Source: Octopus vulgaris
Lineage: Eukaryota
NCBI GenBank assembly: GCA_951406725.2
Contig: OX597815.1
Span: 60,264,001 to 60,328,000, forward strand
DNA length: 64,000 nucleotides
Direction: 5' to 3'
Notes under the pieces: model-generated
What the model was told of the DNA's origin: nothing
What the model saw: only the letters and a program-made list of their open reading frames with translations
Databases searched by the model: none
In this document: positions 5,140-62,512 of the stretch, piece by piece
How the letters are laid out: every line of letters starts with the position of its first letter
Position numbering within the stretch: the first letter of the stretch is position 1
Program-made: the position numbers and the translations under genes

Positions 5140-5850
5140 TCAAAATAAGGAACAGGATATCAAGAGCTGATGCAGTTCGACCGTTTCAAGCGACTCCATT
5201 TAATTGAACAATGCAGTCATTACAGCAATTTAAATGCAGGGCTATCCTCAGCTGCATAATAGATATAATTTTTTAATCAGTTGGACACATTAATATAATT
5301 TCACTCAAATTCTCTAATAGAGCGAGAAGAGGGAGAAAGTCCATGTTGCTACAAAAGTGACTCAAAATATACTACACTTCTAAGAACTGTATAAAGTTTG
5401 TTAGGGTCATAGTTTGTAAAAAAAAAAAAAAAGAAAAAATGATTAAAAAATTAAAATTGAACCACAGTCATTTATAAGCTATGACCATAACAAACTTCAT
5501 ACAGTTCTTAGAAGTGCAGTATATTCTGAGCTACATTAGTAATAACATGGACTTTTCCCCTCTTCGTGCTCTATTAGAGAATTTGAGTAAAATTATATTA
5601 TTATGTCCAACTGATTAAAAAATTCTATTTACTTATGCAGCTGAGGATAGCCCTGCATTAAAATTGATGTAATGATTGCATTGTTCAATTAAATGCAGTC
5701 GCATGAAATGGTCGTACTGCGTCACCTCTTGACATCCTGTTGCTTATTTTGATTTTATTCACCTTACATTAAGTTGTACGAATAGTACCGCACCGATTTG
5801 GCTTTCAAAATAAAGTACCTAATTCAACTGAATATCAATTATTTCTTATA
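5140..5850. repeat. Fold-back element A: ~280-bp diverged inverted arms (5140-5420 / 5472-5755) with a hammerhead-like motif in each arm
   Basis: Arms are reverse complements, e.g. cttctaagaactgtat / atacagttcttagaag. Flanked by (TA)n. Confidence 0.85.
5635..5722 (+). ncRNA. Hammerhead-like motif with long stem II
   Basis: tgcag-CTGAGGA-[ctgcatt...aatgcag stem]-GAAA-tggtc-gtactgc. The opposite arm reads GAAACGGTC. Confidence 0.55.
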
Positions 5851-6611
5851 TAATATATATATATATATGTATATATATATATATTTCGTTTTGGGATTTG
5901 TAAGTGTGTGTGTGTATGCCCCTTTTTTTTATGTATGTAAGCAGGAAAATAAACAAATCAACATACAGACGGATAGGTACATAGGCTATAAGAACAGACA
6001 CATATGGAGACACGGATCCACACATATAAAGATGCACATCCATACATACAAACATGGTACATAGTTGCATAACACACACACAGACATGCACACAGAAGGA
6101 GACAGAGGTGCATACATACACAAACACATTCATAGAAAATACACTAACAACGGACATGCAAGCACATAAATATGCAGGATACGTACATACAGATGCACAC
6201 ACACAAACATACATATATGCATATGCATACACACACATATATACATACATACACATGCAAACACACACATACATACATACGTACATGCATGCATGTATAG
6301 GCACACACACACACTGACCCACACACATGCGCACAAACAAACAAAAGGGAACGCAGTGTAAATAACGGACAGAGTCAAAACTATTGAAAAGGTTGCAAGA
6401 CGCAACGAAAATTTTAGGAAAATAAAAATAAGAAAAAAGTGGAAATTTTACCGGTGAGTGTGATATATTATAAGGCACACAAAGAAAATTACTCTCCCCA
6501 GACACAACAGTATATATATATATATATATATATATATATACACACACACAAAAGTGCTTATATACATAGAGATATACAACTGTACTTATATAGATATAAA
6601 TATACACATAC

Positions 6612-6999
6612 AGGGGAAGCACTCCGTCGGTTACGACGATGAGGGTACCGGTTGATCCGAATCAACGGAACAGCCTGCTCGTGGAATTAACGTGTAAGTG
6701 GCGGAGCACTCCACAAACACATGCACCCTTAACGTAGTTCTCGGGGATATTCAGAGTGACACAGAGAGCGACAAGGCCGGCCCCTTGAAATACAGGTACA
6801 ACAGAAACAGGAAATAAGAGTGAGAGAAAGTTGTGGTGAAAGAGTACAGTAGGGATCACCACCATCCCCTGCCGGAGCCTCGTGGAGCTTTTTTAGGTGT
6901 TTTCGCTCAATAAACACTCACAACGCCCGGTCTGGGAATCGAAACCGCGATCCTATGACCGCGAGTCCGCTGCCCTAACCACTGGGCCATTGCGCCTCC
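6612..6999 (-). mobile_element. tRNA-derived SINE with RTE-like 3' tail
   Basis: Minus-strand head ggaggcgcaaTGGCCCAGTGG..GGTTTCGATTCC (Pol III A/B boxes). Related copy at 44872-45115. Confidence 0.85.
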
Positions 7000-7180
7000 A
7001 CATACATACATACATACGTACATACATACATACATACATACATACATACATACATACATACATACATACATACATACATACATACATACATACATACATA
7101 CATACATAGTTACATACATTCATACATATATATTATTTTATTCTCTCTCTTTTTATAATCTCTCTGTTTATTTCATCGTG

Positions 7181-59887: not shown

Positions 59888-60320
59888 ACAAATATATAAT
59901 TATATAAGTATATTTATAGTAAGGGCACTAATAAATAGCACCACATGCTAGATATAGACGTCAAATGGCTCTAAAAACTACATGAAGTATTCCATTAGCA
60001 CGGGTTGAAAGCGATGAAACTGAACAAAGAAGATTTGTTTTTAAAAGGGTTAATTATAGATCGATTTCTAGTTTCGAGACATAAAATTCCTTTGCTTTCA
60101 TCAGTATAATATACCATATTTTACATTGATGCAAATATTTATACATAATTTATTCACCTCAAGCACATGTGTTTACGACCAAAAATAATACTGCGGTGGG
60201 TATAATAGTTGGAATAATTTATGTTTACATATAATTAAAGATAAAATCATTTTAATAATTTTATCAAGTAGCCAGCATGTAATAAAAACCATATCGGTAA
60301 CAATTAATACAAATATATAA
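59888..60320 (-). repeat. Hammerhead-bearing tandem monomer 1 (~430 bp)
   Basis: Direct repeat of 61885-62365. Confidence 0.88.
60052..60110 (-). ncRNA. Type I hammerhead ribozyme
   Basis: attata-CTGATGA-[stem II]-GAAA-TCGA-TC-tataat, with a 6-bp stem I and palindromic ATCGAT stem III. Confidence 0.72.
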
Positions 60321-61884
60321 TCTGTATATATAAAAGGCAGGATGTGCGTGTGTGTACGTGCATGTAGTTTATGCACATCCACAAATTAGCACGCATGTCG
60401 CTCAAATTTTAGGAGGACATTCGTCAAGATCCTAGCTGTAGTTTCGTCAAATTATTTTCCCCCGAAGCACCAGCGAATAGCGGTAAAAATATTTTTGAAC
60501 CATAACTTCTAACAATTTTCAAGTCGGAGAAATACGCCATCATTTGCAAATATGAGTTAAGTCCTCTTCTAGCGACGGTGTAAAGAGAGGGAGAGAGAGA
60601 AGGAAGGAGAGAGAGAGAGAGAGAGAGAGAGAGAGAGAACAGATTTTTAAAATTTTGTCTTTTTACTGAGTGATTGAGAGGCAAAAACAGACAGACAGGG
60701 GTTGTTATGTATGTATGTGTTAATGGCTTCAGTCGCACACACACACACACACACACACACACACACACACACACACACACACACACACACACACGAACAT
60801 GTATACGTGCAAAATACATGTATACAATGTGTGTGTGTGTGTTGCCTGAGACACACACAGGTGTGTTGCCTGAGACACGCTCCTTCGCAAAGGATCAGCT
60901 ATTATTTTGTAAACAATGTTTCGAAACTTTTCATGTTTTCTGACTCTAACATCTCTGTGGGAGAAGGCAGGCCTCTCTATTCCTCTTACAAAACTTACGT
61001 CCGGGTGCAAAATTTGCTTCAATTGATGGTATTAGTCAGATAGGGTTGGGTGGGACAAGGGCCAGGGGAAAGGGTGTACATGTATGCAATAGGTGTATTA
61101 CGTATATGTTTGTGTGTGTGTGTGTGTATTGCCCATATATATATACTTAGTTGTGATCTGAACATAACCGCTTCTCATACAGAGGATCGGGGGCCCTTTT
61201 GGGCGTTCTATTTTCCTTGTTGGGAGGGTTCCTAACCCATGGGCAAAGGGAGGTTATATGATGGGGGTGGTGTTTTCAAAAGGGTTGGCATATGCAACCT
61301 GATCACATCTGCCGATCAAACTCCCAGCCCATGCGCTCCCGTCGCGACACTAATTCTGCAGAACTGGGTTGGGTATGAAAACCAACTTTAAAGTGTAAAT
61401 ATAGATGTTTTTGAATCAGCAATGTTGTGTTCGGTTAAATCCTATTTGGAGTGAAAAATCAATAAACTGATTCCTTATGGAGTTTTCTATTTAATCAGGA
61501 TTTTAAAAATCGATAAACCGATTCCTTATAGGACTTCCCATTAAAATTGGCTACACTCCATTTTCAACCATAACTTTTACCAGTTTTAAAGTATTTTGTT
61601 CAAACTTGATACCAGCATTACTTAGGATTCATTGGATCTTTGAATGCTTTAAGTTCTCCAAAAACGAAAAAAAAAATCGATTAGTGAAAAAAATCGATAA
61701 ACCGATTCCTTATGGGATCTCCCAATCAAATTGTCTGCAACTCATTTTCAGCCAAAAGTTTACCAATTTCAACGGATTTTGCTCAAATTTGACGTCGATG
61801 TTACTTAGTTTGGTTTGAAATAAAGAGCTTGATTAGCTTAATAATCCTATCTCAATCCCGAGCAAAGTCGGGCTATACTGCTAG
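60321..61884 (+). mobile_element. Non-autonomous Helitron
   Basis: A|TCtgtatatataaaag 5' end; cccga-gcaaag-tcggg hairpin and CTAG|T 3' end; no TSD; three internal aaaatc.ataaac.gattcctta repeats. Confidence 0.88.
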
Positions 61885-62512
61885 TTATATAAATATAATT
61901 ATAATAAGGGTACTAATAAATAGTACCACATGCTGACGCCAAATGGCTCTAAAAACTAGATCATGTACACCATTAGCACGGGCTGAAAGCGAGGACAGTG
62001 AACAAAGAAGATCCTTTTTTGAAAGGTTAATTATAGATCGATTTCTAGCTTAGAGATATAAAATCCTTTGGCTGTCATCAATATAATGTACCACTTCGAA
62101 CATAAATGCAAATATTTATACATACCCATACCAATAACACATATCCACACGCATATATGCAAATATTCACACGTATATACGAGCTAAATCTAATTTATTC
62201 ACCTCAACCACGTGTGATTAAGACCAAAAATACTAGCGCAGCGAATATGTTGGTCGGATAAATTTATATTTATATATAATTAAGGATAAAATCATTATAA
62301 AGATTTTATCAAGTAGCCAGCATATACTAAAAACCATATAGATAGCAATTAATACAAATATATAATAAAATAAATATAATTCCAATAAGAGTACTAATGA
62401 TTTTATCCTTAATTATATATAAATACAAATAACTCCGACAAATATATCCACTGCGGTATTACTTTTGGTCGTAAACATATTTGGTTGAGGTGAATAAGTT
62501 AGATTTAACTAG
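61885..62512 (-). repeat. Hammerhead-bearing monomer 2 (HHR at 62030-62088), start of monomer 3 and an inverted partial copy (62397-62510)
   Basis: attata-TTGATGA-cagc..gcta-GAAATCGATC-tataat. 62185-62297 is the reverse complement of 62397-62510. Confidence 0.85.

Follow-up and report, generated by a model that had tools for sequence, protein, structure and literature searches.

In a 64,000-nucleotide window of the Octopus vulgaris genome (assembly GCA_951406725.2, contig OX597815.1, positions 60,264,001 to 60,328,000), six inverted repeats, here called E1 to E6, carry hammerhead ribozyme sequences that read outward from their centres. We consider it very probable that E1 to E5 are truncated 3' ends of Penelope-like elements (PLEs) and E6 their noncoding kin, and that each was mirrored at insertion by priming from both cut target strands at two fixed start sites on the RNA.

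Families behind the fold-backs

Self-comparison of the window recovered inverted repeats at 5134-5758, 8146-8567, 21280-21676, 22846-23450, 48592-48947 and 62173-62519 (E1 to E6), with arms 83%, 99%, 79%, 94-97%, 86% and 72% identical, respectively (E from 0 to 6e-29). All six lay where an earlier note, made by a model from the sequence alone, had placed them. Its statement that they lack mutual similarity also held, the best match between families having an E value of 0.036 over 13-18 nt, and the outward hammerhead sense that it described was confirmed for 6 of 6. Three elements proved larger than it had proposed, owing to an unpaired tail on one arm (E1 to 5845, E2 from 8000, E5 to 48994). 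TA-rich outer ends were present at several elements, but E3 ends in (TAA)n and E5 on its left in (TC)/(TGTC)n.

A relaxed type I hammerhead descriptor matched the window 4 times, against a mean of 0.05 (maximum 1) in 60 shuffles. The expected core in every arm was recovered in 4 of the 10 arms of E1 to E5, both of E2 and both of E4, whereas 6 failed the descriptor. Both E2 hammerheads are intact, and the E4 core passes with an extra G after A9. The hammerheads of the E1 and E3 arms are decayed or cut, though recognisable against family majorities; that of E5 has U in place of C3 and a stem I that is non-canonical throughout the family, the right E5 arm beginning only with the core. The palindromic stems III reported earlier, ACATATGT (E2), ACCGGT (E5) and ATCGAT, were all present, but ATCGAT belongs to E6 and not to one of the other five. 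The inverted end of E6 is likewise real, but its hammerhead (~62031-62086, C3 mutated) lies outside the proposed 62185-62510 and in one arm only. An Rfam scan of the window gave 0 matches at gathering level, and hammerhead families were absent among the 150 of 319 matches listed in an E-value scan; the latter was dominated by microsatellite-like microRNA models, with a weak RT-1 match at the E2 centre (E 0.018).

In the genome assembly (2.8 Gb, 227 contigs), each arm was found to be a member of a dispersed repeat family, E1 to E5 representing five mutually unrelated ones. First-look searches with E1 to E6 returned 2714, 1987, 407, 4682, 318 and 46 candidate matches, which are not copy numbers, 40 being scored per search. 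The search for linked PLE open reading frames (ORFs) that the earlier note had suggested yielded reverse transcriptase (RT) and/or GIY-YIG endonuclease (EN) ORFs joined to the E1 to E5 families. Upstream of the E2 sequence in a longer copy, L113, lie an untranslated region (UTR) of ~550 nt and then an 833-codon open frame (L113:1741-4239); tail sequence stands immediately upstream of this ORF, whose start, in a different frame, falls within the continuation of the E2 tail. Of the 424 relatives of this ORF, the best that carries a name comes from Argonauta; the family is young (95-98% identity, near-intact ORF). E1 is linked to pieces of a Hydra-type RT/EN ORF, arranged at L204 as inverted arm, RT, EN, UTR and arm, and E3 to a Hydra-type ORF at L216 and L224 (EN end only). 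For E4, ORFs at L232 and L239 matched RVT_1 (E 1e-4) and, again below the Pfam cut-off, GIY-YIG (E 0.0065); for E5, the ORF at L201 and nine further E5 loci, not uniform in orientation, matched GIY-YIG above cut-off (E 7.9e-6). Pfam detected neither the Hydra-type ORF nor three relatives. ORFs near E6 (L185/L206) and an inverted ORF piece beside E3 (L157/L198) lack collinearity with the arm and were not counted as linked.

Judged by their sequence, E1 to E5 are 5'-truncated copies of five separate protein-coding PLE families. The link to PLEs drawn in the earlier note from type I hammerheads of PLE or retrozyme type and head-to-head pairs is thus upheld by the ORFs found upstream, but its family of non-autonomous elements is not: five families bear ORFs and only E6 is non-coding. 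E6 alone looks non-autonomous and retrozyme-like. It is an AT-rich unit of ~490 nt with one type I hammerhead, and in many of 25 loci the end of one unit runs into the start of another; an upstream search confined to the fetched flanks found no PLE ORF collinear with it. Metazoan non-LTR (long terminal repeat) retrozymes resemble it in their short AT-rich head-to-tail unit, single type I hammerhead and lack of a linked ORF, but have monomers of ~300 nt, whereas E6 arrays span only 1-1.6 units in the examined loci and many copies carry a PLE-type inverted arm (PMC7229834; bioRxiv 10.64898/2026.07.22.740005).

By the motifs described in PMC8557442, E1 to E3 are assigned to a Hydra type and E4 and E5 to a combined Neptune/Nematis type. 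Like EN-containing (EN+) PLEs of the Hydra clade (PMC8557442), which have a C-terminal GIY-YIG without CCHH, RW and DKT motifs, CxxC-E-N-CxH, a (TA)n target and a hammerhead near the 3' end, E1 to E3 lack CCHH and have CxxC and CxH flanking E and N (read in E2, E1 and E3); E2 has DKT, and RWL in an upstream frame. The hammerhead variant found in E1, CUGANGAU...UGAA, is among those given there for Hydra elements, but the one listed for Hydra-1_Obim differs from those of E1 to E3, and tails are 92-158 nt here versus 30-40 in that clade. The CxCX5C linker is present in E1 (at L070) and in 13 of 13 aligned relatives, but E2, unlike the Hydra clade, has lost it in 10 of 10 readable copies, with an Asn-rich stretch where it would be. 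A TA run nevertheless adjoins 55 of 59 E2 ends (E1, 20/35; E3, 19/44), which questions the role in TA targeting proposed for this linker. The ORFs of E4 and E5 resemble Neptune/Nematis in a C-terminal GIY-YIG with internal cysteines (CCHH), preceded by a CX2-5CxxC linker, and E5 has DKG. As the earlier note had expected of family consensuses, the majorities of E1 to E4 and E6 contain a type I hammerhead core; E5 differs from Neptune/Nematis in its U3 hammerhead and family-wide broken stem I. In E5 (48760-48810), U occupies position 3 in all 25 aligned loci and a distal 9-bp helix is possible; this may be a variant fold, or the family may have spread without an active ribozyme.

Copy anatomy, decay and folding

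We classified 171 loci of the E1 to E5 families (28, 41, 37, 42 and 23, respectively), the window's five elements included. Twelve duplicate loci and L216 were left out, and L091-L110 were untallied, twelve of them being represented by the longer L111-L122. Flanks were 1.5 kb (8-9 kb for 16 loci), so distant second arms were missed. Head-to-head pairs were observed at 54 loci and tail-to-tail pairs at 2, both of the latter with a neighbour from a 73-77% diverged subfamily 400-500 bp off; 108 loci had a single 3' arm and 7 had none.

The centre differs in every copy, and thus the fold-back is apparently not the mobile unit and the palindrome forms at insertion. The earlier view of a head-to-head unit as the mobile element fails, since the copies have no fixed centre in common. 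Each family has instead two fixed 3' ends, 53-158 nt apart. Automatic calls joined a long, tailed end to a short one in 48 of the 54 pairs, a number that rose to 51 after three had been reclassified by eye; the one-sided tails had escaped the earlier note. Among these 51 pairs, the tailed arm reached further 5' in 25 and the short arm (by >20 nt) in 12, with the two within 20 nt of each other in 14, some of which may reflect alignments stopping in low-complexity DNA. Because the short arm extends further in those 12 pairs, copying of one arm cannot have produced the other. At several further loci (e.g., L002, L118, L151, L161, L165 and L167) the inverted piece is the tail alone. Many junctions have a near-zero gap and a short palindromic overlap, and the shorter arm begins ≤16 nt from the ribozyme cut in 7 of 54 pairs, a count made without a null model.

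The number of differences between two arms approximately equalled their distances from the family majority added together (in E1, 31 versus 15 + 18). This additivity indicates that the hairpins are not homogenised or maintained, and upkeep by conversion was rejected on this ground for most pairs. E4 is an exception: its arms differ at 8 sites versus 11 + 11 from the family majority, have 7 derived bases in common and share ~30 nt of flank, and they were probably duplicated or converted after insertion. The two arms of E2 copies carry matching subfamily-diagnostic bases in 13 of 15 informative cases (four sites), as expected from one template or one source. The hammerhead core has changed less than its flanks (63/2082 versus 2775/46871 positions). 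Trinucleotide-matched core differences from the family majority numbered 52, compared to 86.8 expected (p 0.0014), and base-matched core differences between arms 13, compared to 27 expected (p 0.005). Selection in the source elements explains the conservation relative to the majority; that between arms is weak and leaves room for some constraint on the copies.

The E2 motif was predicted to form a double-hammerhead dimer via its palindromic stem III (8-bp shared). Adopting the hammerhead fold would cost 3.0 kcal/mol in a single E2 arm versus 124.5 in the whole element (124.6 on the other strand), and 11.7 versus 79.9 kcal/mol in E4; in the predicted hairpins, 64-96% of bases are paired on both strands. 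Given the outward polarity, the antisense arm would be made first from either side and the ribozyme would be zipped up on emerging, so that only transcription from the centre would free it. The self-cut hairpin proposed earlier thus has against it both a folding cost of 80-125 kcal/mol and the order in which the arms emerge: read-through RNA would be a long hairpin with a sequestered ribozyme, unlikely to cut itself. If the locus is transcribed, such a hairpin could possibly serve as double-stranded RNA (dsRNA) or as an ADAR substrate. Contigs of three putative RNA runs and one putative DNA run covered E2 family sequence, with depth past the centre in the DNA run only; with ~2000 look-alike candidates, this coverage is not assignable to the window locus. 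An A>G change at 8108, present in the putative RNA runs only, is accompanied by a G>A change and does not qualify as editing.

The proposed insertion step and its alternatives

From family membership, linkage to RT and GIY-YIG ORFs, variable centres, polarity and the pairing of long with short ends, we infer the following steps. The GIY-YIG endonuclease would nick both strands of a repeat such as (TA)n. The resulting 3'-OH groups would each start complementary DNA (cDNA), one at the short site and one at the long site further 3', which would add the tail; both cDNAs would stop early, and their free ends would join, often where a few bases offer palindromic microhomology. The outer ends would then both be element 3' ends, leaving the terminal-repeat hammerhead duplicated and reading outward, and the copies would afterwards decay mostly neutrally. 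Cutting and extension of both strands by a PLE protein have been shown in vitro, with starts at two internal sites of the RNA that bound the tail; the ribozyme is protein-assisted and dispensable for insertion (PMC11167929).

Several observations weigh against this scheme. The start site did not differ between strands in vitro, so strict pairing is not predicted by itself (PMC11167929). The insertion reaction is itself unobserved, the pattern being read from genome copies, and our sample consists of the top-scoring matches per query and is not random. Of the three pairs that break the rule, E3 (short/short) and E4 (long/long) both lie in the window, the third being L215. Two diagnostic sites disagree between E2 arms (L009 and L120), and trinucleotide-matched core differences between arms numbered 12 versus 18.5 expected (p 0.04), which fits purely neutral decay slightly less well. 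Finally, 39 of the 51 pairs (the 25 with a longer long arm and the 14 near-equal ones) would fit a cDNA fold-back too. In that process, a single cDNA would fold back, self-prime on the antisense strand and then be connected, through an internal TA-like site, to the second end of the target; a self-priming origin of the inverted arm was proposed in PMC3846280. It would account for the palindromic overlaps at nearly gapless junctions, the short ends at TA-like stretches and the diagnostic bases common to both arms. We nonetheless regard it as unlikely, since in the 12 non-nested pairs each arm has sequence missing from the other, and inverted pieces consisting of the tail alone also speak against it.

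Later inverted duplication or arm conversion of single insertions during DNA repair fits the window's E4, in which both ends are long, the flank is included and derived bases are shared. It cannot explain why 51 of 54 pairs combine a long end with a short one, each defined by the family, and arms of most other pairs share few derived changes; as the origin of the palindromes it is very improbable. We find it scarcely credible that a non-autonomous palindromic ribozyme family moves head-to-head and supplies ribozyme-cut dsRNA with a host role. The extensive pairing of the predicted hairpins on both strands, the tandem E6 without a linked ORF, the somewhat conserved core and the exceptionally high dsRNA potential and hyper-editing of octopus (PMC5625713) would suit such a family. 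However, five families have PLE ORFs, the variable centres already contradict a mobile unit, 108 of 171 loci are single-armed, additive arm differences show that hairpins are not maintained, most arms (6/10) fail the descriptor and the hammerhead fold is out-competed by the hairpin. We therefore favour priming from both cut strands.

Neighbouring features, known elements and meaning

Table 1. Features of the window (positions within the 64,000 nucleotides)
Feature	Position	Strand	Remarks
E1 left arm	5134..5420	-	Hydra-type PLE 3' end; short end in (TA)n; hammerhead ~5170-5257 decayed (U16.1 changed)
E1 right arm	5470..5845	+	Long end, ~92-nt tail (~5753-5845) into (TA)n; hammerhead ~5635-5722 with stem II mismatch
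E2 left arm	8000..8358	-	Hydra-type PLE 3' end; long end, ~153-nt tail (8000-8148); hammerhead intact, 8278 to 8207
E2 right arm	8354..8564	+	Short end into (TA)n; intact hammerhead 8434-8506, palindromic stem III ACATATGT
LINE-like frame	17412..18929	+	505 codons; presumably resembles long interspersed nuclear element (LINE) RT
Lone E1-family copy	19385..19854	+	Non-inverted; long end
E3 left arm	21278..21502	-	Hydra-type family; short end in (TAA)n; hammerhead decayed (GAAA lost)
E3 right arm remnant	21531..21676	+	Internal deletion took stem I 5' and C3; short end, exception to long and short pairing
E4 left arm	22846..23139	-	Neptune/Nematis-type; long end and ~30 nt shared flank; hammerhead core at 23081
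E4 right arm	23152..23450	+	Long end; hammerhead 23215-23248; arms 97% alike
Transposase fragment	38904..39299	+	Presumably mariner-like
Transposase fragment	42596..42937	-	Presumably mariner-like
E5 left arm	48591..48785	-	Neptune/Nematis-type; short end in (TC)/(TGTC)n; U3 hammerhead variant
E5 right arm	48790..48994	+	Begins at hammerhead core; long end, ~58-nt tail
Lone E6-unit monomer	59886..60322	-	Without inverted arm
E6 left arm	61882..62400	-	About one monomer of ~490-nt head-to-tail retrozyme-like unit; hammerhead ~62086-62031 (C3 mutated), stem III ATCGAT
E6 right arm	62396..62512	+	Ends short of its hammerhead at LINE-like remnant

Just beyond the left end of E1, at 5055-5092 on the minus strand, lies a hammerhead-like motif (CUGAUGA; stems II, III and I of 5, 5 and 3 bp) that probably derives from an older element. 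Around E4 we observed a more diverged inverted repeat (22700-22845 and 23450-23495), whose left end is long and whose right end is short and lies in TA; an older head-to-head pair from another family may thus have E4 at its centre. Four further decayed PLE pieces, at 13461-14410 (+), 32451-33142 (-), 45160-46143 (+) and 51580-53045 (+), were also recognised: two are Hydra-type ORF fragments, another is an E4-related EN end whose hammerhead has decayed, and the remaining one is an RT-EN fragment of Neptune/Nematis type that ends at (TTA)n. The E4-related fragment is bracketed by a 150-bp inverted repeat (91%; 44468-44616 and 46143-46294) whose arms are 1.5 kb apart. A 415-bp stretch is duplicated in inverted orientation (39638-40052 and 51167-51581; 99.8% identical, 11 kb apart), with one copy flanked by a LINE remnant (~49950-51167) on one side and by the 5' end of a decayed PLE fragment on the other; templated insertion could explain it, or it may stem from the assembly. 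The window also contains a minisatellite array at 29432-30538 (40-bp unit, ~26 copies) and a ~500-bp repeat bounded by (TAA)n (30626-31129, 31301-31794, 39803-40286 and 25920-26079), two copies of it in tandem. No host exon was recognised among the 78 window frames of at least 110 aa, a search that short exons would escape.

The layout with mirror-image hammerheads is already in print: an inverted 5'-truncated copy, one-sided tail and (TA)n target are described for PLEs by Craig et al. 2021 (PMC8557442), who include Hydra-1_Obim from Octopus bimaculoides and report that the inverted copy of Penelope-13_HM, truncated at its 5' end, leaves one hammerhead on each strand, and head-to-head is called the most frequent arrangement of EN+ PLEs in PMC3846280. 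Our copies share junction palindromes, a tail at one end and Asn-rich ORF inserts with the EN+ PLE insertion unit, which has an inverted pseudo-LTR and an optional tail (Arkhipova et al. 2013, PMC3846280; PMC8557442, Fig. 2 legend). They differ from it in the pairing of long with short ends counted here, and the non-nested pairs favour two primings over the self-priming of PMC3846280. Palindromic stem III, dimers, low activity and an extra base after A9, as in E4, are covered in PMC4209133; 235 hammerhead matches are reported for the giant squid (PMC6962438), and a high dsRNA potential and hyper-editing are reported for octopus (PMC5625713). Our literature search, most subscription papers being outside it, found no count of long and short ends and no double-priming model for PLEs. 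In LINE-1 twin priming, both target strands prime cDNA, which yields an inversion. The LINE-1 pieces cover different parts of the RNA, whereas here both cover the same 3' end, and the hammerhead is thereby duplicated.

We conclude that E1 to E6 are ordinary retrotransposon debris. The one open point of value is the PLE integration mechanism: the near-strict pairing of long with short ends, together with arms that are not nested, gives a genomic readout of this unsolved step, and the existing in vitro system could put it to the test. The E2 family offers a convenient case, being young, with a near-intact ORF, and TA-targeted yet without the linker zinc finger. A bolder proposal, which we hold to be doubtful, is that double priming, from two fixed RNA start sites with one per strand, is obligatorily coupled during the insertion of PLEs from at least two clade groups, and that the resulting stubs are a main source of the octopus dsRNA and hyper-editing load, because about one-third of the copies are inverted pairs, many of them short-looped. 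In this heavily editing lineage, ADAR could be supplied with thousands of such hairpins, as by-products rather than as regulated elements.

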